A DNA stretch of 32,000 nt from Xylanibacter ruminicola 23 (GTDB lineage Bacteria; Bacteroidota; Bacteroidia; Bacteroidales; Bacteroidaceae), in NCBI RefSeq assembly GCF_000025925.1, contig NC_014033.1:1200001-1232000 (forward strand), read 5' to 3'. Below, one piece after another: positions 10,427 through 32,000 of this stretch (position 1 is the stretch's first letter; each line of letters opens with the position of its first letter). Under the pieces are notes generated by a model. It had not been told where the DNA came from, ran no database searches, and saw only the letters and a list, made by a program, of their open reading frames with translations. Both the position numbers and the translations under genes were made by a program.

Positions 10427-11494
10427 TTAATGATTTGCTTCGAATTCCTTCATGCAAGCTACGAGAGCGTTGCAGCCTTCGATGGTCTGGGCGTTGTAGC
10501 AAGATGCACGGAAACCACCAACTGAGCGGTGACCCTTAACACCAACCATACCCTTTGATACTGCGAAGTCGAGGAAGTCCTTCTCCAGCTCCTTGTACTC
10601 GTCGGCCATTACGAAGCAGATGTTCATCAGCGAACGATCCTCAGCCTTAGCTGTACCTACGAACATCTTGTTGCGGTCGATCTCGCCATAAACAATCTCT
10701 GCACGCTGCTGAGCCAGCTTATCCATAGCCTCTACACCACCCTGGGCCTTGATCCAGCGCAGATTCTCGAGAGCGCTGTAGATAGGAACTACAGGAGGAG
10801 TATTGAACATACTGCCCTTATCTACGTGTGTACGGTAGTCGAGCATGGTTGGGATCTCACGTGGAGCCTTACCCAGAGCGTCGTCCTTAACAATCACGAT
10901 AGTAACACCTGCCATAGCCAGGTTCTTCTGAGCACCAGCGTAGATGGCATCGTACTTAGCAACGTCAACAGGACGGCTGAAGATATCTGATGACATATCG
11001 GCAATCAGACGAACGGGAACGTCGAGGTCCTTACGGATCTCAGTACCATAGATAGTATTATTTGTTGTGATGTGCAGATAGTCAGCATCAGCGGGAACAG
11101 TCCAATCCTTAGGGATGAAGGTATAGTTGGCATCAGCTGAAGAAGCCACCTCTACTACCTCACCGAAAAGCTTTGCTTCCTTCATAGCCTTCTTAGCCCA
11201 AACACCGGTGTTCAGGTAAGCAGCCTTCTTAATCAGGAAGTTATAAGGAATCATACAGAACTCCAGACTGGCACCACCACCAAGGAAAATCACGGAGTAA
11301 CCCTCGGGAACGTTAAGGAGTTCCTTTACGAGAGCTACAGCCTCGTCAACTACAGGCTGAAAGTCCTTTGCACGATGGCTGATCTCCATCAGAGAGAGAC
11401 CTGAGCCGTTGAAATCAAGACACTGCTGTGCGGTCTTCTCAATCACCTCGCGAGGAAGCATCGAGGGACCGGCGTTAAAGTTGTACTTCTTCAT
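10427..11494 (-). CDS. serC: Phosphoserine aminotransferase
   Basis: 355 aa. SerC-type N-terminus [14 protein letters not shown] and PLP-lysine region [14 protein letters not shown]. Confidence 0.95.
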
Positions 11495-21648: not shown

Positions 21649-22950
21649 TCAGTCTTTCACATGGTTACAAATCCAATCAGCAATGGGCCCTTTCTTCCCC
21701 ATTCCCATATAGATGGCAAAATTCTTACTTTCTTTTTTATCATCGCCCACAATAGCCGATGCAATACCCAAATCGCTGCCTTGTATTACGCCAGCCTTTT
21801 TCAGGCTACCCACCACAGCAGCCTTCAGCTGTGGTCGTTTGTTGGTTTTCTGCCACTCTTCGGCTATCACATGCCCTATCTCCGATTTCATCAGACAGCT
21901 CACCAGCTCATCACGCCACGTGGCAGTATATTTCTCCTTATCAACCGAAACTGCATCAAACCAATCCTGCTGCAGCATCCTAGTGATGGTATTATAAGGT
22001 GCAAATAAAATAGTATCTTCCAACTGTCCTGTTTCTGTAGGTTGTAGCACATTTATCAGTTCTGGGTTCAGTCGAGCCATCTCCTTGTGTATCAGATACA
22101 GCTTCATGTCGAGTTCAAAGATGGCTTGCAGCTGCGTATCGCTAAAGTCGTAGTAATGGTTCTGGATGTATTTCCCGTATTTCTTGTAGTCGATAATAAG
22201 TATGGTGTCGTTCCAATGTATAAACTGCCGCCACTGGGCACATGACACACAAAAATCGTCACTCATCACAAAATCATAAGGCAGAAATCCTTTCAGATAG
22301 TCCATTTGCACCTCGTTTAGTTCTTTCTGCGACGGCACAGGCGCAAATCTCATGATACCTTTTGTTAGCGATTCGGCTACCACTTTGGCCTGCAGTTCTC
22401 TCAGTTTGTCGATGGTTACACACAGGTTCTCGTACCGCCATTTCTCAAATCTCTTCGATATCGCATCGCCACTGTAGTTCTGCTTTTTGGCAAAATAGAA
22501 TTTCTCAAACATGGCAGAATCGCAATGCATCAACGCTTTCTCAGCCTCAGCCAATAGCGTTTTCAGTTCTTCGATGCAGCATTTCAGACTCTCGTAAAAG
22601 CTTTCCACTTCCATGTCGCTGCAGATTCTTTCGCACCACAGCCAGAACAATTCTTTGCGATGCAACCCCGACGAGATGCTGAAAGCCTCCATGCACTTAC
22701 CACGTTTCAGGTCTTCGATATACCCCGGTAGTAACTTCACGGCATCCTTCAGTTGTCGCATAAAGAACCGAGCAACAAAGGCTCTAATTCTACTGTTTTC
22801 AATAGATACCACACAATATTGGCTGGCTATTTCCCTGGCAAGGTTGATGTAAATTTTTAAGCTTGGCAGGTAATCAAGGGGCGCTCCGCAGCCAGCAGCC
22901 GAAGCTGCCCCAAGTTGAGCTCTTTCTAGCTCATTGTTAATTGTATCCAT
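21649..22950 (-). CDS. Hypothetical protein (433 aa)
   Basis: Long ATG-initiated ORF with a TATATTTG box 48 nt upstream. No motif recognised by eye. Confidence 0.6.
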   Translation of the reverse strand: MDTINNELERAQLGAASAAGCGAPLDYLPSLKIYINLAREIASQYCVVSIENSRIRAFVARFFMRQLKDAVKLLPGYIEDLKRGKCMEAFSISSGLHRKELFWLWCERICSDMEVESFYESLKCCIEELKTLLAEAEKALMHCDSAMFEKFYFAKKQNYSGDAISKRFEKWRYENLCVTIDKLRELQAKVVAESLTKGIMRFAPVPSQKELNEVQMDYLKGFLPYDFVMSDDFCVSCAQWRQFIHWNDTILIIDYKKYGKYIQNHYYDFSDTQLQAIFELDMKLYLIHKEMARLNPELINVLQPTETGQLEDTILFAPYNTITRMLQQDWFDAVSVDKEKYTATWRDELVSCLMKSEIGHVIAEEWQKTNKRPQLKAAVVGSLKKAGVIQGSDLGIASAIVGDDKKESKNFAIYMGMGKKGPIADWICNHVKD

Positions 22951-22997
22951 ACTTATAGTTTTTATATAACAACGTTTATTAGTTAATTATTCGGCTG

Positions 22998-23005
22998 CAA
23001 ATATA
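22998..23005 (-). promoter_or_regulatory. Candidate -7 box TATATTTG
   Basis: Plus-strand CAAATATA, 48 nt upstream of ATG 22950. Confidence 0.45.
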
Positions 23006-23314
23006 ATACTTCTCCAGTAATCAAAAGCAAAAATATTAATCTTTTTTATTCGCGAGCACCACTAAATTTTTAGTGTATTTCCTTGGTTTTTCCAATAGAT
23101 TCACTATATTACAACAGTTACCTGCTGCGAGTCGCAGCACCCCACCAAAATCCGCCCACATTTTGTAAATAAAACATAGAAAATCCACCAAACAAAAATA
23201 TTTTCAGCCAAATCCCAAATTGCAATCTCCGACCTTACAAAATCGACCTAAAGACAAACTAATCAGCAAATCATTGACATCAAGCGATCATTTTATGTTA
23301 AATATGTATAACAA

Positions 23315-23328
23315 TAACAATATTGTTA
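23315..23328. promoter_or_regulatory. Perfect 14-bp palindrome TAACAATATTGTTA (operator-like)
   Basis: Read directly from the sequence. Lies 33 nt upstream of the TACTTTTG box of the HicB-like/HTH gene, in the -33 region. Confidence 0.4.
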
Positions 23329-23360
23329 CTATTTTGTTTGTATGTTAGCAACAAAATCGT

Positions 23361-23368
23361 TACTTTTG
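23361..23368 (+). promoter_or_regulatory. Candidate -7 box TACTTTTG
   Basis: 35 nt upstream of ATG 23403. Confidence 0.45.
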
Positions 23369-23402
23369 CTAGTGTTGGAGGGCTTTTAGATGGTTTAAAA
23401 CA

Positions 23403-23819
23403 ATGAATAATATGAAGGTTGAAGCAATTGTGGAAAGAACAGACAATGGTTATTACTCCATTGCATGCGATGCCCAGATTGGAAACTTCTGTTTGGGTGG
23501 GTATGGAAACAGTGTTGACGAAGCCAAAGCCGACATGGCAGCTATCGTGAAGGAAGCTCAGGAAGAATACGTGAAAGAACACGGCAGTCTTCCCAAGAAT
23601 CTTCAGGAAATCAAGATTGAGTACAAATACGATCTACAGTCCTTTTTCAATTACTTCGAATGGATTAACATCAGCAAATTTGCCAAGTTTGCAGGTATCA
23701 ACGAAAGTAAAATGCGCCAATACAAGATAGGTGCTGCCTATGCAGGCGAAAAGACCAAAGAAAAAATCTTGGTAGCCATCCAAAAAATGAGCGCAGATCT
23801 AGCTGCCGTTTCATTATAG
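23403..23819 (+). CDS. HicB-like (UPF0150-fold) N-terminal domain fused to a C-terminal HTH-like segment
   Basis: 138 aa. KVEAIVERTDNGYYSIACDAQIGNFCLGGYGNSVDEAKADMAAIVKE resembles HicB-family antitoxin N-domains. The C-terminal ISKFAKFAGINESKMRQYKIG looks like an HTH. It is the only plus-strand gene in the island. Confidence 0.5.
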   Translation: MNNMKVEAIVERTDNGYYSIACDAQIGNFCLGGYGNSVDEAKADMAAIVKEAQEEYVKEHGSLPKNLQEIKIEYKYDLQSFFNYFEWINISKFAKFAGINESKMRQYKIGAAYAGEKTKEKILVAIQKMSADLAAVSL

Positions 23820-23828
23820 AATCAAAAT

Positions 23829-23855
23829 AATGTGGTCGCAATTTGCGACCACATT
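23829..23855. terminator. Bidirectional rho-independent terminator between convergent genes
   Basis: AATGTGGTCGCA-ATT-TGCGACCACATT, a perfect 12-bp stem. AAAATAA on the left and TATTTT on the right. Confidence 0.75.
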
Positions 23856-23892
23856 TATTTTGAAACATCTACAACATTCATATAAAGAGTAA

Positions 23893-24147
23893 TCATGAAT
23901 CTTTTTTTCTTTGTGACCTAGCCTTCCTTATCTTTCTCAACTTTCTAGAATCTTCATGCGCCACATACACAACATAAGCAAAAAGAATCAGGATAACCGC
24001 AACAATAAGAAGCGACCACCATTTGAATACATAAATAATAACATATATTGCAAGCAAGACAAGAATTACCCTGCCTATTGTAGTGTTAAACAGCAACCAT
24101 AAATAAGGAAAAGCACCCATAATTATTCTATTTTTGTTTACCAACAT
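23893..24147 (-). CDS. Small multi-TM membrane protein with basic C-terminal tail (84 aa from ATG 24147)
   Basis: MLVNKNRIIMGAFPYLWLLFNTTIGRVILVLLAIYVIIYVFKWWSLLIVAVILILFAYVVYVAHEDSRKLRKIRKARSQRKKDS. ATG 24147 shares one base with the TAA of the upstream gene (TAATG). The longer track ORF (to 24180) overlaps that gene by 34 nt. Confidence 0.6.
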   Translation of the reverse strand: MLVNKNRIIMGAFPYLWLLFNTTIGRVILVLLAIYVIIYVFKWWSLLIVAVILILFAYVVYVAHEDSRKLRKIRKARSQRKKDS

Positions 24148-24686
24148 TATGCCACAAGAATGATAGCTGCTAGAGCACAAAGATTAACAGCTGTATCCTT
24201 GTTATTCCAGAAACCATCCGTTAGCTTATGCTCTATAATGTAGTCTCGCAACTTCAGACGCCATTCTTTGTTTTGCAGCAATATCCACAGAGCCTCATCA
24301 AAATAGGCATAATCTACACTTTCTTTCAACCATGCCTTTGATGGAGTACGCCCTTTACAGAGTCGTTCACCCTGATAGTTCAAATGCCAGAACCCATCAG
24401 ATTCCAAATGCCAGAATGGTTTTTCAATACCAGTTAGATTGTCAAACTGAGATTCCTTAGCATATTTCGACATCAACATTTTATATCGTCCTTCGAGCCA
24501 ATCGTTTATTGCAAACTGATTATTCCGGAACACATTAGCCTCAACACCATCAATAATTGCCAGCAACAGGACAGGCTTAGCCACAATAATCTCACCATGA
24601 ATCTTAGCCTGTCTAATACTCATTATCTGCTTTGTGTAATGCTTAAAGCATTGCTCATAGCTAAAAAAGCTTATAACCCTATTCAT
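24147..24686 (-). CDS. Stand-alone domain protein with KPVLLLAIIDG ... PFWHLESDGFWHL signature (possible modified-DNA-reading domain as in COG3183/ScoMcrA-type enzymes)
   Basis: 179 aa. ATG start with its own TAACTTTG box. The motif assignment is from memory of N-terminal domains of HNH type IV restriction enzymes. No nuclease motif is present. Confidence 0.6.
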   Translation of the reverse strand: MNRVISFFSYEQCFKHYTKQIMSIRQAKIHGEIIVAKPVLLLAIIDGVEANVFRNNQFAINDWLEGRYKMLMSKYAKESQFDNLTGIEKPFWHLESDGFWHLNYQGERLCKGRTPSKAWLKESVDYAYFDEALWILLQNKEWRLKLRDYIIEHKLTDGFWNNKDTAVNLCALAAIILVA

Positions 24687-24708
24687 AACTTTACGCCTTT
24701 AGTTGGCG

Positions 24709-24716
24709 CAAAGTTA
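24709..24716 (-). promoter_or_regulatory. Candidate -7 box TAACTTTG
   Basis: Plus-strand CAAAGTTA, 23 nt upstream of ATG 24686. Confidence 0.45.
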
Positions 24717-24755
24717 CAAAAAAATAGGGAAAGTTATAACATATCTACGATATAA

Positions 24756-25334
24756 TTAAATTTCTTCAGGTTCATCGTCATCAGACCCACCAGTCAAATC
24801 TTCTTTCTTATCAACAGCAAATGAGAGAAAAGTATCAAGAAGAGAAGAATTTCGAGAAAGCCAATTCGAATCTTCCTCTAGCTTTTCGTGAATATAATCA
24901 AACCCAAAATTTGCATACTCTTCCATTTTCTTCTTCAATTCAGCAACAGCCCGTTGGACAGTCAGTTCGCCTTTGTCCAAAGCTATAAAATCTATGTTCG
25001 TGCGAGCTAACAATGCGATAAACATATAATATCGAAGCTGGGGATAAGCCTTTCGCATCTTTCGATTCTCAATGTTTCCCCAATACATTATTGGTTGACC
25101 AAGTCCTTTTCGCTTAATCGGATCAGGATTTAACGGTTTTGGGTTGTCTGCATATAATCCAATGAAGAATGCAACGATGTACAACTCGTAGCCAGCTCCA
25201 AGAATTTTAGCTTTTGACTCAGTATACTCGTTATAGCCTTTGCCATAGTCACAATATTGACGTAATAACGGTTCGAATCTAACCTCGAAATCTGGGTTCT
25301 TTTTTGCCCATAGATCATATAAAGTCTCTGCCAT
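24756..25334 (-). CDS. Hypothetical protein with acidic tail (192 aa), last gene of the defence operon
   Basis: ATG start 2 nt after the ATPase stop. C-terminus GGSDDDEPEEI. It may correspond to a dnd-associated small protein family, but I cannot verify this. Confidence 0.65.
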   Translation of the reverse strand: MAETLYDLWAKKNPDFEVRFEPLLRQYCDYGKGYNEYTESKAKILGAGYELYIVAFFIGLYADNPKPLNPDPIKRKGLGQPIMYWGNIENRKMRKAYPQLRYYMFIALLARTNIDFIALDKGELTVQRAVAELKKKMEEYANFGFDYIHEKLEEDSNWLSRNSSLLDTFLSFAVDKKEDLTGGSDDDEPEEI

Positions 25335-25336
25335 AA

Positions 25337-27496
25337 TTACTTAATTTTTGTAGTTCTTACTCTAATTGTAGAAAGATCGTTTTTGTTAAAGCCCACCCTA
25401 TCCTTTTCTATTCTATAGATTGGACATGAAAGAGAGTACGCAGCAGATTTGATATTGCTTTTTTGGGTAGCCGCATCAAATTCTAACATATCTTTGGTTA
25501 CAATAACACACTGTTTCTGGATTTTATTGATTATTTCGTAGAATTCTGTTTCCTTCATTTGTCCAAATGAAGATGTAGGCGCATCAAAGATCAGTGGATA
25601 TTCAGTTTCTCTTTTCTCTGCAGTAACTTTAGCTATAGCAAAGAGGACCGCCATATACATCGTTGTCTTTTGCGACTCAGACGGACTGGTCACTATAGTA
25701 CCATTTTCACTCCTGAGCACAACATCTATACTTTCAGTTTCCTGACTGCGCATCATTTCAATGATTCCATGGAAATCGTTACCACTTAGTTCTGCTAAAT
25801 ACTTGTTAGAGAGTGTTTTGAGGTGAGAAATAAAATTCTTACGATTGGTCTCGCGTGCAGAAACAAAAGCCTTATAGATATGATCAAAGATATTGTGTAT
25901 ACGCCCAAGTCTGGTTACTTCCTTGTTACCAGTATCCAAAGAAGACAACTCACTCTCAGTTTCTTCCTTCTCTTTACGTAGACCTTCAAGTATCACACGC
26001 AATTCTCCTAATCTTTGCTGGGCAGACTCATGCCTATTCATAAAATCGCGGACATCCTTAGCAGAACGATTAATATCTTCCTCCGAAATGCCATTCAGTT
26101 GTGATAATGTCCGAGACTTCTCGTCCTTAGCATCATCAAGCGCTTGTTGCCATTTCTGCATTTCCTTGGTACGGTCAGCAATAAATTCCAATTCCTGTTG
26201 AATCGTATCGGTGCGATTAGCGACAGAACGTTCTTTTGGACCGCCATAACTTATACTGAGGTGCTGTAATTCTTCAACATAATTGAATTTAAAAATATCC
26301 TCATCCTCAGTCTTCTGTTGTTTCTGTCTATTTTTTAACGCTTCTTGAAGTTTTTGAACCATAAATTCATATGCTTCTGAACCTTTGGGAGCTGGTCTTC
26401 CGCAAACTTTACAACATTCATCATCAATCATTTCCACCAAATATTCTTCATTTGGAACGAACCATGGAAGTTTTGTTTTACCTTCAGGAAGAGCCAAAGC
26501 AGCCAATTGCTGTTGTTTACCTTTTTCAATTAAATATTCGTCATGTTGTTTACGACGCTCTTTACTGAATAAAGAAACTTTTTTCTTGAATTCCTCAAAA
26601 ATCTTTGGATAAGCACACAATATCCACTGATTATCTAATAGAGAAGTATTAAAGTCTACATTAGTATAGCTCCTCATTCTTCTGACTTTCTCCTCGTAGT
26701 CCTTTATTCTCTCATTGATAGAATCAAGCTTTTCTTTAATTTCACGATTGTCAACCATTTTATCGAGTTTACCCTTATAGACTCGAGAGTTCTCTTCTTG
26801 ATCTTTAATTTGCCGACGTGTATCTGAGATTTCACTCTCAATTCTATTAAGTACATGTTCTAAACGCTGAGCCTCCTGTGCCGTTTTCTTATCTTTCTTC
26901 AACTCGTTTGAATGAGCCTTACTTGCTTGTTCTTTTAAACTAAGAGTTAGTTCAGCAAACTTGTCAAGTCGAGTTATATCTGAGAAGGTTCTTAGTAATC
27001 GCTTTAATGCTTCAGTATCTTCGTGGAAAATATCAAGTTGAGTTTCGCCTTTAAACATACTGTATCTACGAATCTCTGCATCAAAGCACGAATTAAGTAT
27101 CTGTCGACCATCAATTTGCTCACGTTCGATACCATTGAAACGGTAACCATAGAATTCTCTTGACACAATTTCAACCGCGTTAGCATCGGTCTTTCTAAAG
27201 GAAAAAGCTTTCGTCAATTCCTTTTCGCCCTCATGATCAAATTTAATTGTAACACGAACTTCATCTTCATCGCCTACAATCATTTGAGACTTACGCATCT
27301 CCGATATATTGAAGATTTCATCCTTCTCACGTAATCCCGTTGTATCAAACAGCCATTCTAAGGCTTCGAAGAAAGTGGTTTTACCATCTCCATTGTCTCC
27401 GATAATTAATGTGAGTCCTGTTGGATTAAACTCAAATCGATTCTCATTTCCATAGTAACTGCGAAAGTTACGTATTTCAAGTTCTTTTAAAATCAT
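25337..27496 (-). CDS. SMC/Rad50/DndD-like ABC-type ATPase with long coiled coil and central CxxC
   Basis: 719 aa. N-terminus ILKELEIRNFRSY. Walker A GDNGDGKTT. Several hundred residues of K/E/Q/R-rich heptad-like sequence contain CCKVCGRP. Signature-like SESQKTTMYMAVLFAI. Walker B YPLIFDAPTSSF. Confidence 0.85.
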   Translation of the reverse strand: MILKELEIRNFRSYYGNENRFEFNPTGLTLIIGDNGDGKTTFFEALEWLFDTTGLREKDEIFNISEMRKSQMIVGDEDEVRVTIKFDHEGEKELTKAFSFRKTDANAVEIVSREFYGYRFNGIEREQIDGRQILNSCFDAEIRRYSMFKGETQLDIFHEDTEALKRLLRTFSDITRLDKFAELTLSLKEQASKAHSNELKKDKKTAQEAQRLEHVLNRIESEISDTRRQIKDQEENSRVYKGKLDKMVDNREIKEKLDSINERIKDYEEKVRRMRSYTNVDFNTSLLDNQWILCAYPKIFEEFKKKVSLFSKERRKQHDEYLIEKGKQQQLAALALPEGKTKLPWFVPNEEYLVEMIDDECCKVCGRPAPKGSEAYEFMVQKLQEALKNRQKQQKTEDEDIFKFNYVEELQHLSISYGGPKERSVANRTDTIQQELEFIADRTKEMQKWQQALDDAKDEKSRTLSQLNGISEEDINRSAKDVRDFMNRHESAQQRLGELRVILEGLRKEKEETESELSSLDTGNKEVTRLGRIHNIFDHIYKAFVSARETNRKNFISHLKTLSNKYLAELSGNDFHGIIEMMRSQETESIDVVLRSENGTIVTSPSESQKTTMYMAVLFAIAKVTAEKRETEYPLIFDAPTSSFGQMKETEFYEIINKIQKQCVIVTKDMLEFDAATQKSNIKSAAYSLSCPIYRIEKDRVGFNKNDLSTIRVRTTKIK

Positions 27497-27501
27497 AACC
27501 G

Positions 27502-27720
27502 TCAGCTTAAATGATTACACACTTCTCTATAAATGTCCCTGTCAGACACATTAGATGATTGCCTTTCAATAATACGACCAACAGCACTTACAACTTCATT
27601 ATCTGACTCTATTGCATCATCAACGGTCAGATAATCGTCTGGGTCATATTCGCCATACTTACAAAGTATAGGTTCTTTCAAAACTGCTTGAAGTAATTTG
27701 TCTTTTGCTCTATATTCCAT
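27502..27720 (-). CDS. Small acidic protein (72 aa)
   Basis: ATG start 5 nt after the helicase stop, with a stop 5 nt before the ATPase start. Acidic stretch YDPDDYLTVDDAIESDNE. Confidence 0.55.
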   Translation of the reverse strand: MEYRAKDKLLQAVLKEPILCKYGEYDPDDYLTVDDAIESDNEVVSAVGRIIERQSSNVSDRDIYREVCNHLS

Positions 27721-27725
27721 AGACG

Positions 27726-30002
27726 TTAAAATATTGGTAAATTATAATATGTCAAAATATCTTCTAATTCTTTTACTGTATCACTGCTATTCTGTGAAAG
27801 ATTAGCAAACTCACGAACCCTTTTCATCTCGTTGTTCAAAAGATTGCGTTCCATTTTGTAAGAAGACATAGCGTAATCAATCTTAGGCGCAACTACCAGA
27901 TCATGGATAATCGCATACTTCTTATCTTCATGAGTACGCAATATTCGTCCTCTACGTTGGATAAACTGTCTTGGGTTTCCTGTACTAGCACAGAATATCG
28001 CCATCTCGCTACGAGGCACATCAACACCTTCGTCCAAACATTTCATTGATGTCAAGACATCTAATTGTCCTTTCGAAAATTTTTCGAGTATCCCGTCTCT
28101 ATTAGCTGTTTCACTTGTGAACTGCATGACAGTTGTATGAGGGTCAACCTCTGCTACAATACGAGTATATTCATCAATAAGGTGCTGAGTTTCAACATCA
28201 TCACTTATTGTGTCTTGACTATCGCTGTCATTATCAAAGTACTCCGCAGGCTCATTACCTTCAGGGACATAAATGAGAGAATATTTCAAAGAGCCATTAG
28301 TTTTTATTCTATCTTTCAATATGTCGTAAAATACAGTCTTCTTTCCAGATGCTTTATGAATAATACGTTTTCTCTTCAACAATAGCGACATAAGTATGTC
28401 ATCTTTTTTAAATCGGTCACTATCAACTAAATAATACTTTGCCAACTTAACGGAAAGTTCATTGTATTCTTGCATCTCTTCAGAATTGAGATATACTACA
28501 TGAGGATAATAATAGTATTGACACAGCTTACCTTCCTGTATAGCTTGCTGCATAGTATATTCAAAGGTATAATCTTCTTTTATACCAAAAAAATCGTTAA
28601 TCGCATTATTTCCAGCATCATCAAACTGCCTTTGTGGTGTAGCAGATAAACCAATCCTTCTACCATAAGGTATGTATGGTAATCTTACTTTTATCTTACC
28701 CGCCCCAATATTGTGACACTCGTCTGCTATAAATAGAACCTTTTTTCTTGGGAGTTGCGTCAGAATTGTAAAAACATTATCTCGCGCAAATGAGGCATAT
28801 GTAGAAATTATGATATAATTAAGTTTGTTATCATCATTAATTTTCTCTTGCAAAATGATGTTGTCAAGTGATTTCTTCCAAGAAACATTTTTTGAGTAAA
28901 CCTTTATTATGCTATCGAAGTGAAACTTTTTACATTCGACAGCCCATTGGTCAACAAGAACGGTAGTTGGTACAAGTATTATTGCTTTATAACAACCAGC
29001 TTTTCCTTTATATATATTAAGAAGACAATTCAAAGAAGTTATTGTCTTACCAGTACCAGTAGCCATTGCAAATAGACCTTTCTGCTTATTTGCAACCCAT
29101 TTTTCAAAGGCTTTATTTTGGTATTCATGTGGACCTGTGACATAGGGGAACGCAGGCAAATCCTGATCTTCCTCACTATGATTATATTTCTCCTTAATTA
29201 AGGAAATAACGTTGTTAACTTTTTCCCGGGTACGTTTTAATGCATACGCAACATTGTTATTGATGGGATATTCTTTCTTTTCTTTTCGAATTATTTCTTC
29301 TTCCTCTTCGAGAAGCTCTTCTATCTCTTTCTTTCTGAAGCAATTTTGTATATTACTCCTAATTTTGGATGCATCAACATATACGTAATTAGGATTCTGC
29401 TCAGCAAAAGCGGTTTGAAATAATTCTTTATTGTGCCGAACCCTATTCTCTGCAACACTACCATCCCAATCACAGTCTATAGATATACTTTCAATATTTT
29501 CAATAAGTGCATTCCGAGAGAAATTACATGATCCATTAAAGCAAATGGAATTGTAGGCATCGCTAAACACTCCTTGCTTAGGATGTGATATGCCAACACT
29601 GTCTCGAGGACGGATGATTTTAATTTCCAATCTATTTTCCTGTATTAGAAAAGACAGGCAATCATAAAAATGCCGATTTCTCTTTGAAAGTGTATTTTTA
29701 ATTTTCTCCAAATTGTCTATATCAAAGAAATCAAGAACACTTCCTTCTTTTCCTTTAGCTATAAAATCCTTATCTGCTTGCGTAAGTACATCATTGATGA
29801 TAAGACGCATTTTCCCTCCATGATATAAGAACAAAGCAAAACCATCAGCCAAAACTTCTATGGCAGAAGAGGAGAAAAAGCCTAACATCAAATCAAACGA
29901 TGTAGCATTGCACAGACATTCTGAAAAGAAACCTACCGGTTCCCACTCTGTTCTGGAATCAAATTGCCTGTGACTTGGCCATATTACATCATTCTTCAGC
30001 AT
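27726..30002 (-). CDS. PLD-family (single HKD) nuclease domain fused to an SF2 DEAD/DEAH-box (ResIII-type) helicase
   Basis: HKD-like GISHPKQGVFSD...FNGSCNFS in the N-terminal third. Helicase motif I MATGTGKT, motif II FIADECHN, motif III GLSATPQR and motif VI QFIQRRGRILR. The track start (30035) is a GTG overlapping the upstream gene by 22 nt. ATG 30002 (MLKNDVIW...) is preferred. Confidence 0.9.
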   Translation of the reverse strand: MLKNDVIWPSHRQFDSRTEWEPVGFFSECLCNATSFDLMLGFFSSSAIEVLADGFALFLYHGGKMRLIINDVLTQADKDFIAKGKEGSVLDFFDIDNLEKIKNTLSKRNRHFYDCLSFLIQENRLEIKIIRPRDSVGISHPKQGVFSDAYNSICFNGSCNFSRNALIENIESISIDCDWDGSVAENRVRHNKELFQTAFAEQNPNYVYVDASKIRSNIQNCFRKKEIEELLEEEEEIIRKEKKEYPINNNVAYALKRTREKVNNVISLIKEKYNHSEEDQDLPAFPYVTGPHEYQNKAFEKWVANKQKGLFAMATGTGKTITSLNCLLNIYKGKAGCYKAIILVPTTVLVDQWAVECKKFHFDSIIKVYSKNVSWKKSLDNIILQEKINDDNKLNYIIISTYASFARDNVFTILTQLPRKKVLFIADECHNIGAGKIKVRLPYIPYGRRIGLSATPQRQFDDAGNNAINDFFGIKEDYTFEYTMQQAIQEGKLCQYYYYPHVVYLNSEEMQEYNELSVKLAKYYLVDSDRFKKDDILMSLLLKRKRIIHKASGKKTVFYDILKDRIKTNGSLKYSLIYVPEGNEPAEYFDNDSDSQDTISDDVETQHLIDEYTRIVAEVDPHTTVMQFTSETANRDGILEKFSKGQLDVLTSMKCLDEGVDVPRSEMAIFCASTGNPRQFIQRRGRILRTHEDKKYAIIHDLVVAPKIDYAMSSYKMERNLLNNEMKRVREFANLSQNSSDTVKELEDILTYYNLPIF

Positions 30003-30013
30003 TGGCGATTTCT

Positions 30014-31117
30014 TTATATAAAACAGTTCGTACACATGATATCATCACCAAGGATCTCGGCAAGGGTTGTACCCTTGTTGTTTGCTCGGCTTTCTTTTTG
30101 GCGACGGATGATGTCGAGTTTTATCTGGCGGATACGTTCTGGTTTAATGAGGTCGGCTAAACTCTCATTCTGATTCCACGTGTATCCATCTTTTTCAAAC
30201 TCCATCGCTTTCTTAAAGAGGTCGGGATGTTGCTCATAGAGCCATATCCATTCTATCTTCTGCTGGAAGAAACAGAAGTAACAACCAGAACGACTGCGGC
30301 AATAGGTTCCCGTTTCGCCATCTACTTCGAAAGGTATTTCCTCGTAATAGGCAGGTACTCCTACTCCACTTTCTCTCAGTAATCTGAAAATATCGTCCTT
30401 TACCAATATGTCGGTATTATCAAGCAGGGGGAACTCATCCAGTTTCCCCACTGGGTAATCAGTTGTCTTAAGAAACTCGAACACCGCATGATTAAACAAC
30501 TTAACGTCGTAATCAAGTAATGCATTCATTTTCTTAGAATAAAAGAACTGCTTGGTAATCGGTTTCTTTACCGTATCCATAATCTCTTCCTTGAGGAACC
30601 CTTCTGGACAAAGACGCTCGTATATTTCCGTTATCTGTTCCAGGTTCTCATTGTGCAAGAACTTGTTGATGACGTCAATGCTCCATATATTTTTACGGAA
30701 TGGGAATACAGCTTGGATATTGGGCTTAGAAGAGATATAACCATCACGATCCTCATCGCCTCGAATACCAACATACGAAACTGCATAATCGTCACCAACG
30801 TATTCCTCGAACTTATCGAGTTTCATCTTTTTGGTACACCAACGAGCCTGGGGAGAAGGTAAGAAACCACCCATAGCTTTTAAGAAATGGTGGAATGGTG
30901 TTGGCTCAGGACTACCCTCGGCAGCTCTCAGTCTTTCAATCTTACCCAAATAGGCCTCCAGGCGATTAATCAGCGTTTCGGTTTCAGCCAACTCACAACC
31001 GGTATCTGAATTATAGTACTCAATCTTTAATGATGGGTACGTCTTTTTCAGATAGATGGCGAGAGCAGCACTATCCTTACCACCTGAAATTCCTAATATA
31101 TGTCTTACTTTTGTCAT
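30014..31117 (-). CDS. PAPS-reductase-fold PP-loop ATP pyrophosphatase (DndC/SspD-like)
   Basis: 367 aa. N-terminal PP-loop GISGGKDSAALA. C-terminal cysteine cluster YCRSRSGCYFCFF plus terminal MCTNCFI. ATGA overlap with the upstream gene. Confidence 0.82.
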   Translation of the reverse strand: MTKVRHILGISGGKDSAALAIYLKKTYPSLKIEYYNSDTGCELAETETLINRLEAYLGKIERLRAAEGSPEPTPFHHFLKAMGGFLPSPQARWCTKKMKLDKFEEYVGDDYAVSYVGIRGDEDRDGYISSKPNIQAVFPFRKNIWSIDVINKFLHNENLEQITEIYERLCPEGFLKEEIMDTVKKPITKQFFYSKKMNALLDYDVKLFNHAVFEFLKTTDYPVGKLDEFPLLDNTDILVKDDIFRLLRESGVGVPAYYEEIPFEVDGETGTYCRSRSGCYFCFFQQKIEWIWLYEQHPDLFKKAMEFEKDGYTWNQNESLADLIKPERIRQIKLDIIRRQKESRANNKGTTLAEILGDDIMCTNCFI

Positions 31118-32000
31118 TTCATTTTTTTACTTAATATCGACAGTAATGTACATACGTCGACGTTATTATCACCTGAAAGCAACTGATTGATTTTCTTCTC
31201 CAAATCAGCAGCCTTCGATTTATCTTTCTCTGGTAGAACATAGGTCTGAGTACGAACACTACTACCTTTGCTAGTTACCATATCGAATGAATATGCCTCA
31301 TTCTGTTCTTTATCGCCAACCTTCTTTGATATATCGGAATATTTCTCGCATTCGCGTAATAGATATACCAAATCATCAGCTAATTTATCTTCTTGTTCAT
31401 CACGCAATGCATCAAGTCGCTGTTCGAGAATGGTATAGCAGATTGACTGGTACCACTCAGTGCGATTATCATACTCTGTCATTACATGGTGATAGAACTC
31501 ACGTTGCTTACCTGTCAACAGATAGTCTTTAACATTGGCCAGTCGCTCACGTACTTCAACTATATATTCAGAATATTCATAACTCTGTAAGCCAAAACCT
31601 TCCACAAGTCTCGCTTCAATACGATCTATTAACTGAGTGTAGCATGTACGCAGTTCCTTTATGGCTCGCTGAATGATTCTTCCATACTCGTTAATAAACT
31701 CTTCTTGTTTCAATATTTCCTGAGTAAAGCCTAATGCATCAGGCAGATCTTCAAAGAAAGCCTTTTCTGGATCCTTAGCATTTGCAAGTACATCACGGAA
31801 TCTCATTGTTGACTCATGATCGAATTTACGAGTATGTTTGGTATATTCGTTCAAACGAACATAGAAACTCAAGAACGGCTTGATTGTCTCAATAAAATTC
31901 GAATTTGTAATAGCATGCTCGTCACCAAGATTAATGAATCGGCGATATTGGTTGAAGAAGCCCATCTTCATACCATCTACAGCAAACTTCTTAACTGCAA
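31114..32000 (-). CDS. Unassigned helical protein: either 285 aa from ATG 31971 or the C-terminal part of a larger protein
   Basis: The frame stays open from 31971 to the window edge (..AVKKFAVDG-MKMGFF..). The stop overlaps the next start (ATGA). No catalytic motif recognised. Confidence 0.65.
   Translation of the reverse strand, partial: AVKKFAVDGMKMGFFNQYRRFINLGDEHAITNSNFIETIKPFLSFYVRLNEYTKHTRKFDHESTMRFRDVLANAKDPEKAFFEDLPDALGFTQEILKQEEFINEYGRIIQRAIKELRTCYTQLIDRIEARLVEGFGLQSYEYSEYIVEVRERLANVKDYLLTGKQREFYHHVMTEYDNRTEWYQSICYTILEQRLDALRDEQEDKLADDLVYLLRECEKYSDISKKVGDKEQNEAYSFDMVTSKGSSVRTQTYVLPEKDKSKAADLEKKINQLLSGDNNVDVCTLLSILSKKMK

Follow-up and report, generated by a model that had tools for sequence, protein, structure and literature searches.

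The 32,000-nucleotide (nt) stretch of the Xylanibacter ruminicola 23 genome analysed here (contig NC_014033.1, positions 1,200,001 to 1,232,000; hereafter the window, numbered 1-32000) holds at its end, on the minus strand, a defence island that joins an SspBCD phosphorothioate (PT) writer to a PbeABCD effector module, followed by a gene for a protein of 179 amino acids (aa). By sequence comparison and structure modelling, the product of this gene is a stand-alone sulfur-binding domain (SBD) of the ScoMcrA/Hga type without a nuclease, and comparison with related loci identifies the gene as the conserved terminal gene of the SspBCD-PbeABCD island. The reading that we favour, to which we give a probability of about 0.6, is that the protein is a PT-DNA reader serving the PT-dependent Pbe defence module; how exactly it would be coupled to Pbe is less certain.

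The 179-aa protein consists of an SBD core (residues ~10-155) and a 15-residue C-terminal tail. In phmmer searches of PDB sequences it matches three solved SBDs, among them those of Hga (PDB 8H0L; E 7.6e-10, residues 17-144) and ScoMcrA (5ZMO; E 0.023). The NCBIfam profile NF045808 ('phosphorothioated DNA-binding restriction endonuclease') is matched over its N-terminal half only (E 9e-7), and its score lies under the curated cut-off, since the alignment covers nothing but the SBD half of the model. A PF26340 (DNA-SBD_ScoMcrA) record on the gene is graded 'weak', and the local Pfam copy gave no PF26340 match. An AlphaFold2 model built with 34 homologues has a mean predicted local distance difference test score (pLDDT) of 81.9 and a predicted template-modelling score of 0.78, with a confident core at 10-155. 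Searched against the PDB with Foldseek, the model retrieves exclusively PT-DNA-bound SBDs of Hga, SprMcrA and ScoMcrA at ranks 1-12, with target-normalised TM-scores of 0.63-0.80 for isolated-SBD chains (8h0l: E 1e-7, 0.78-0.80), and ordinary winged-helix proteins appear after them, at E>0.06. An initial annotation of this DNA, made from the letters alone, had stated that the motifs of the protein mark the DNA-reading domain of ScoMcrA-type enzymes, and both the sequence matches and the structural comparison with the ScoMcrA and SprMcrA domains bear this out. It had also described the protein as nuclease-less, and indeed no HNH, PD-(D/E)XK or other nuclease or catalytic domain was found in it with Pfam, NCBIfam or PADLOC; the PADLOC mREase_IV match spans only positions 90-195 of a profile of 560. 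Matches to the RecA C-terminus were rejected, since they amount to 34 residues of low score, inflated by chains with tandem repeats. The viral structure library contains no SBD-like phage protein, and thus gives no hint of an anti-defence origin.

Two motifs had been singled out at the outset, AKPVLLLAIIDGV (residues 36-48) and EKPFWHLESDGFWHL (residues 88-102); both are present, at a spacing of ~52 residues rather than the 60 or so first given. The protein has the same fold and motif layout as the SBDs of Hga (8H0L), ScoMcrA and SprMcrA (5ZMO, 7CC9/7CCD/7CCJ), sharing with them K37, the basic residue that on helix 2 comes right after the first position of the pocket, and a P-F-W-x-L...W helix with the pocket proline (P90). 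Along the pocket, A36, K37, K89, P90 and H93 correspond to H116, R117, Y164, P165 and A168 of ScoMcrA and to H25, K26, L75, P76 and H79 of Hga, and F91, W92, L94 and W100 equal the ScoMcrA core residues F166, W167, L169 and W175. SBDs bind Rp-PT through the R117/P165-type pocket. Mutation of R117 or P165 in ScoMcrA abolishes PT binding, R117K is tolerated, Y164 varies among homologues, and the basic residue is K in most homologues; the pocket His of ScoMcrA puts its methylene group into the pocket wall. The 179-aa protein has the equivalents of both binding essentials (P165 and R117) and lacks the pocket His. Among the 150 closest representatives at 50% identity, on which the residue counts are based, K37 is found in 124/124 and P90 in 117/118, and position 36 is Ala in 110/124 and His in only nine. 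The near-invariance of K37 and P90, together with the replacement of the His, sets apart a large and distinct 'A-K-P' clade, and by its sequence the 179-aa protein is a member of this clade, which keeps both essential residues and has the His systematically replaced.

More than 970 homologues of the protein were found; almost all of the best 120 have a length of 179 aa and an identity of 72% or more, and a profile search for divergent homologues returned close ones only. Comparison loci and contigs are designated by L-numbers, and coordinates given after such a number are those of the locus. Against the 80%-identical gene of L001, differences at codon positions 1/2/3 amount to 27/16/81, with 65 synonymous and 29 non-synonymous codon differences, a pattern of strong purifying selection, and by these comparisons the gene is real. 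Residues 165-179, the last 15, make up a helix that is hydrophobic and uncharged (Kyte-Doolittle mean 2.4; pLDDT <50) and probably too short for a normal transmembrane span. Such a tail is present in 7/73 stand-alone representatives by a strict hydropathy criterion (~10-12 on inspection), which belong to the sub-clade of the window protein, and in 0/26 representatives in which the SBD ends a longer protein.

The gene appears usually to have its own promoter. The box TAACTTTG, 30 nt before the ATG, had been read as belonging to this gene, and the comparison of loci agrees: a TAnnTTTG box (consensus GTATCTTTG) is kept at -30 to -35 in seven related loci (L001, L003, L017, L030, L066, L067 and L068), which makes a promoter of its own plausible for the SBD gene and TAACTTTG a putative promoter element. 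The box is absent where the SBD gene abuts the preceding open reading frame (ORF), as in L018, and TAnnTTTG occurs 46 times in the window where 25.6 occurrences are expected. Upstream of the gene, a conserved 5'-leader hairpin or operator was unsupported (RNAalifold gave 5 weak pairs, -2.1 kcal/mol), and an Rfam scan of 22800..24900 returned nothing above the gathering score.

The island stands out by its composition, at ~36% GC from ~23000 to 32000 against 47% (Table 1). Its last gene had been placed immediately downstream of a Dnd/Ssp-like operon; more exactly, it lies directly downstream of SspC, SspD, PbeA, PbeB, PbeC and PbeD, in this order. SspC and SspD are in the window, and the DUF4007 (SspB-type) gene that completes the SspBCD module lies upstream in L005, a record of the same genome in which the full SspC measures 1074 aa. 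According to a published re-annotation (PMC10853773), PbeA combines an HKD nuclease with an SF2 helicase, the small PbeB is disordered, PbeC belongs to the CxC ABC ATPases and PbeD is a cognate of DndE. In the window, a PbeA of this HKD-helicase build, whose start coordinate comes from the gene call in L005, adjoins a DndD-like ABC ATPase, PbeC, that carries a CCKVC cysteine cluster in its coiled-coil region, and the 72-aa and 192-aa ORFs fit PbeB and PbeD in size and place. The 72-aa protein has no hidden Markov model or PDB match, and the 192-aa protein no match to hidden Markov models, PADLOC or the PDB; a DndE identity was considered for the latter and not adopted, the single-sequence AlphaFold2 model being unusable (pLDDT 41), and the assignment by position is kept. 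For the PbeC-like ATPase, the PADLOC Lamassu model LmuB scores slightly better than the best PbeC model.

Table 1. Features of the Ssp-Pbe-SBD island and its flank, in window coordinates.
Feature	Coordinates	Strand	Basis
SspC, C-terminal part, cut by the window end	31114..32000	-	PADLOC SspC 2.6e-81
SspD, PAPS-reductase-type PT writer subunit, 367 aa	30014..31117	-	PADLOC SspD 2e-86
PbeA, PLD/HKD nuclease fused to SF2 helicase, 758 aa	27726..30002	-	PADLOC PbeA E=0; TIGR04095 9e-120; Pfam ResIII, Helicase_C, PLDc_2
Small protein in PbeB position, 72 aa	27502..27720	-	ORF by translation; gene call in L005-L007
PbeC-like ABC/SMC-type ATPase, 719 aa	25337..27496	-	PADLOC PbeC 4.4e-23, LmuB 1.3e-26; Pfam AAA_15, AAA_23
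Protein in PbeD position (DndE-cognate position), 192 aa	24756..25334	-	position only
Bacteroidota-type -7 promoter box TAACTTTG	24709..24716	-	sequence; promoter role inferred
Stand-alone SBD protein, 179 aa	24147..24686	-	PDB and NCBIfam sequence matches; AlphaFold2 and Foldseek
Right-hand boundary of the Ssp-Pbe-SBD island	24131..24146	.	blastn and global alignment against L013, L016
84-aa ORF, flank element outside the SBD system	23893..24147	-	homologue, locus and junction comparisons
Bidirectional intrinsic terminator, 12-bp stem, closing this transcript and that of the convergent 138-aa gene	23829..23855	.	

Close relatives of the SBD gene keep the same company. All contexts found at 70% identity or more are Pbe modules coupled to a PT writer, with the order SspC-SspD-PbeA-PbeB-PbeC-PbeD(-X)-SBD in L001-L004, L017, L066, L067 and L068-L070 and DndC-DndD-DndE-PbeA-PbeC-PbeD-SBD in L018 (DndC 1.7e-141). 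Here X is a protein of 626-745 aa, encoded in sibling loci between PbeD and the 179-aa-type gene, whose N-terminus is a second, canonical (H-K) SBD. Proteins with such an H-K SBD span 557-745 aa (L001 7690..9927; L017 8019..9899; L066 8009..9934), their remainder has no Pfam or PADLOC match, and in L149 and L150 one is encoded directly after SspD. The initial annotation had proposed a survey of homologues for linkage to dnd/ssp genes and for co-occurrence of the SBD gene with the downstream 84-aa ORF; the linkage held at 70% identity or more, and the two-gene association is not conserved.

A metagenome scan with ~145-aa stand-alone A-K-P proteins as the query places genes of this kind between brxP and brxC of BREX type 4 in ~57 of 62 loci (within L071-L136); in L092 (3601..12164) and L121 (7456..16235) PADLOC gives BrxP at 7.5e-218 and 3.3e-263, BrxC at E=0 and PglZ at 2.9e-248. 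BREX type 4 has been reported to write PT in gut Bacteroidales, and deletion of the gene in the brxP-brxC position of B. salyersiae, named 'mcrA', had no effect on PT synthesis (PMC12914056). Its dispensability for PT synthesis would assign it to the reading or restriction arm. With Ssp, Dnd and BREX type 4 as neighbours, the clade accompanies three independent PT-writing systems.

Other relatives carry the domain as part of a longer protein, fused to sigma-70 regions 2 and 4, to MTaX1 with or without DpnI_C, to DUF6339 or to the C-terminal domain of the RNA-polymerase alpha subunit. The closest of these fusions, at 45-62% identity, have the SBD at the C-terminus (P0126, P0136, P0139, P0140, P0148, L031 7682..10738, P0130, P0135, P0143 and L029 8783..10447), and their sigma-70 part is a PADLOC MzaA-like region. 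Matches in Microcoleus are 322-aa SBD proteins in large Dnd/Pbe islands, an arrangement that is already known. Among the variants of the locus, L010 (1462..1530) and L012 lack ssp-pbe and have a truncated GDPD gene joined to the SBD gene ~13 nt into its coding sequence; what remains of the gene, like the flank, matches the window at 100% identity.

The favoured reading, a PT-DNA reader for the Pbe module, would work as follows. SspBCD puts PT marks on host DNA, as is established for Ssp systems, which modify a single strand with PT; the CpsC dinucleotide is present in gut isolates that have sspBCD. The SBD protein would bind these marks through the surface pocket formed by A36, K37, K89, P90 and H93, and a 'self' signal would then be relayed to the PbeC ATPase, PbeD and the HKD-helicase PbeA, maybe by way of the C-terminal hydrophobic helix, such that Pbe would act on unmarked invader DNA only. 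Pbe antiviral activity depends on PT (PMC6459918), and there is no PT reader among the Pbe components that have been described (PMC10853773). The same type of SBD is found fused to the modification readers MTaX1 and DpnI_C, which offers an analogy for a reader module, MTaX1 having been proposed as the discriminator of Pbe-type (CxC ABC-ATPase) systems that are coupled to methylases. The initial annotation had named an anchor or regulator for the neighbouring system as its fallback, and this comes close to what the comparative data favour.

Several observations weigh against this reading. The pocket His (H116/H25), among the most conserved SBD residues, is Ala here and in most of the clade, and ligand specificity could therefore differ; PT binding by the A-K-P clade is predicted from sequence and model, and genetically the clade is known only through its B. 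salyersiae cousin, which is dispensable for PT synthesis. That the SBD protein makes contact with any Pbe protein is conjecture, and with a promoter of its own the protein need not be stoichiometric with Pbe. The window has no counterpart of the 626-745-aa canonical H-K SBD protein of the sibling loci. Relatives at 60-66% identity end operons that have no PT writer within 10 kb: the relative in L020 ends an operon with a C5-methylase, a McrB-like protein, DUF2357-PDDEXK_7 and Vsr, those in L022-L024 end helicase operons, and an N-truncated copy in L033 follows Wadjet JetABCD. An SBD-like gene directly after vsr in C5-methylase/McrBC-like operons is seen in L020 (4091..10537), L117, L135 and L138, where the domain is linked to 5-methylcytosine systems rather than to PT systems.

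The same operons without PT writers would suit a different role, in which the protein surveys DNA for foreign PT or another modification and, as one half of a split type IV enzyme, hands what it binds to a separate nuclease, PbeA or a neighbouring PLD nuclease. All characterised SBDs sit in PT-dependent restriction enzymes, and the authors of the BREX type 4 study treated the cousin gene as 'restriction (McrA)'. In L018, the SBD gene is followed after 37 nt by a gene for an HTH_17 plus PLD-nuclease protein (10577..11299; DrmC-like, 6e-10), which could be a separately encoded nuclease partner. Yet the window and every locus at 70% identity or more encode a PT writer in the same operon, so that a PT-triggered nuclease would be autoimmune unless it were motif-selective, and besides PbeA the window has no adjacent separate nuclease; we regard this role as unlikely. 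It is similarly improbable, in our estimate, that the protein is a general winged-helix transcription regulator of defence islands that reads no modification. The winged helix-turn-helix (wHTH) fold of the SBD, the conserved promoter, the position at the 3' end of varied defence operons and the fusion of relatives to sigma-70 regions 2 and 4 agree with such a function, but the invariant residues are those of the sulfur/phosphate pocket, K37 and P90, rather than a recognition helix of the usual kind, all top structural matches are SBD-PT-DNA complexes, with generic wHTH regulators at E>0.3, the cousin gene sits within the BREX type 4 operon, flanked by brxP and brxC, and the leader yielded no conserved operator or hairpin. 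That the gene is what decay has left of a type IV restriction gene for an SBD-nuclease, with no present function, is very doubtful: truncated copies exist in L028, L032, L033, L010 and L012, and one source annotates the 179-aa gene as 'putative restriction endonuclease', but hundreds of full-length homologues, the purifying selection seen against L001 and the conservation of both promoter and C-terminal tail speak against decay.

The initial annotation had itself proposed a gene pair, a sensor of modified DNA translationally coupled to a small membrane effector that would bring about abortive infection, and this is now largely refuted and scarcely credible. The features on which the proposal was built are real. 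The stop codon TAA of the SBD gene (24149..24147) shares A24147 with the ATG (24147..24145) of the 84-aa ORF, whose product is hydrophobic across residues 15-67, ends in the basic tail RKLRKIRKARSQRKKDS and has two predicted membrane helices, and the SBD protein has a hydrophobic tail as well. A holin or membrane-toxin identity was considered and rejected, the match to Phage_holin_3_6 reaching 21.1 bits against a cut-off of 28.4 bits (E 3.3e-4) and the other matches being compositional; the sub-threshold match is among the points that agree with a membrane effector, as is a 55-codon hydrophobic core whose reading frame is uninterrupted in three variants and whose codon changes number 9 synonymous and 9 non-synonymous, the latter mostly conservative. 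The ORF may thus encode a real small membrane protein of the flank. Its length is weak evidence: an ORF of at least 75 aa arises in only 0.5% of shuffles of this stretch, yet two other ORFs of 81-82 aa lie in the same 9-kb island. Against a pairing with the SBD gene stand its distribution and its junction. The 84-aa ORF has only two homologue clusters (59 and 60 aa) among 5.8 billion protein clusters, against more than 970 homologues of the SBD protein, and both begin at its second ATG (24120), which would give 75 aa, and have unrelated C-termini. It gave no tblastn match in 49 genome loci carrying SBD relatives, is missing after the SBD gene of L001 (80% identical), and is never beside an SBD gene outside this strain group. 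In L008 the SBD gene is 100% identical to that of the window, the sequence diverges at 24094 and the ORF is destroyed. Conversely, the ORF occurs without the SBD gene in L013-L016; in these SBD-less contigs it lies 400 nt downstream of a helicase/DUF1156-methylase/DUF499 system and adjoins the same convergent gene of 135-138 aa and a HicA toxin gene. Homology of the flank to L013 and L016 (blastn and global alignment) begins at ~24131 (AGAATAATTATGGG), 16 nt after the SBD stop, and the TAATG overlap and the first codons (MLVNKN) thus straddle the island junction, which falls after the SBD stop but before the conserved ATG (24120). A 4-nt indel in relatives shifts the frame before the basic tail and removes it, the nucleotides themselves remaining conserved. 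By these comparisons the 84-aa ORF is an unrelated flank element set beside the SBD gene by island insertion, and no partner of it.

The flank has a history of its own. Window positions 23370..24135 correspond to L013 9992..10753, a shared segment with the small ORF, the terminator and the convergent 138-aa gene (23403..23819, +) that borders on other defence cargo in L013, which suggests a hotspot for defence cargo beside a phage-like element with ANT, BT4734-like primase and Peptidase_M15_3 genes. In L013 the counterpart of the 138-aa gene adjoins the HicA toxin gene (10787..10969); a segment of ~240 bp with hicA is missing from the window, which leaves the 138-aa gene as an orphan in antitoxin position.

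Compared with the SBDs of Hga, ScoMcrA and SprMcrA, which are part of HNH or PD-(D/E)XK restriction enzymes in hosts that usually have no PT, the 179-aa protein differs in having no nuclease, an Ala in the pocket, an added C-terminal helix and a PT writer in the same operon. PT-dependent type IV endonucleases (SBD-HNH, SBD-SRA-HNH, SBD-PD-(D/E)XK) have their nuclease in the same polypeptide, which the 179-aa protein does not. Its nearest published counterpart by position is the BREX type 4 'mcrA' of B. salyersiae (HMPREF1532_02792; Yuan et al., Nat Commun 2026), matched to the ~145-aa A-K-P genes by position only. Both would be small SBD genes in a PT-writer operon of Bacteroidales, and the ~145-aa brxP-brxC genes share the AKP...P signature with the window protein, but the B. 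salyersiae gene has BrxP/C/Z/L partners, is embedded rather than terminal and lacks a C-terminal hydrophobic tail; it has been described only as not required for PT synthesis and as a presumed restriction enzyme. PbeABCD as published (Xiong 2019; Rakesh, Aravind and Krishnan 2024) comprises four genes coupled to Dnd or to methylases, with no SBD component. The window has PbeA, a PbeC-like gene and genes in PbeB and PbeD position together with a PT writer, but here the writer is SspBCD, and after Pbe comes a conserved fifth gene, the sixth in sibling loci, which encodes the SBD. MTaX1, likewise small and accessory, is a proposed discriminator of modified DNA for this effector machinery, and MTaX1-SBD fusions exist, although its fold is unrelated and it is a presumed reader of base methylation rather than of PT. 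SspE and DndI sense PT on self-DNA through a hydrophobic pocket and so control a defence effector, but their sensor is built into the effector as a DUF262-type N-terminal domain that has no homology to the SBD. In published surveys the SBD family falls into seven clades, in all of which the extra domains are nucleases, kinases or of unknown kind, and in the literature searched the component lists of Pbe and BREX type 4 contain no SBD apart from the 'mcrA' label in B. salyersiae. The SBD itself is a known domain; new is its occurrence as a stand-alone protein that has no nuclease, carries the His-to-Ala change and is encoded by the conserved last gene of Ssp/Dnd-Pbe.

A wider proposal, which we put forward more tentatively than the reader role in the window, is that stand-alone A-K-P SBDs form a portable 'self-mark reader' cassette that would plug three unrelated PT writers, Ssp, Dnd and BrxP/BrxC, into Pbe, BREX type 4 and possibly other effectors. 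They might then fill the role of PT sensor that has so far been missing in both Pbe and BREX type 4, and in the sub-clade of the window protein the C-terminal hydrophobic helix might provide the docking that covalent fusion provides elsewhere.

The discrimination between self and invader in PT defence beyond SspE and DndI is where these observations matter. Pbe needs PT and has no assigned PT sensor, and PT writing by BREX type 4 is a recent finding; an SBD gene that is conserved in the Ssp-Pbe, Dnd-Pbe and BREX type 4 operons and encodes no nuclease is an obvious sensor candidate. At the same time, a tempting but wrong annotation of the locus as a sensor plus membrane toxin is removed. The SBD family is widened by a large clade with a His-to-Ala pocket, which may also serve tools for PT-DNA.

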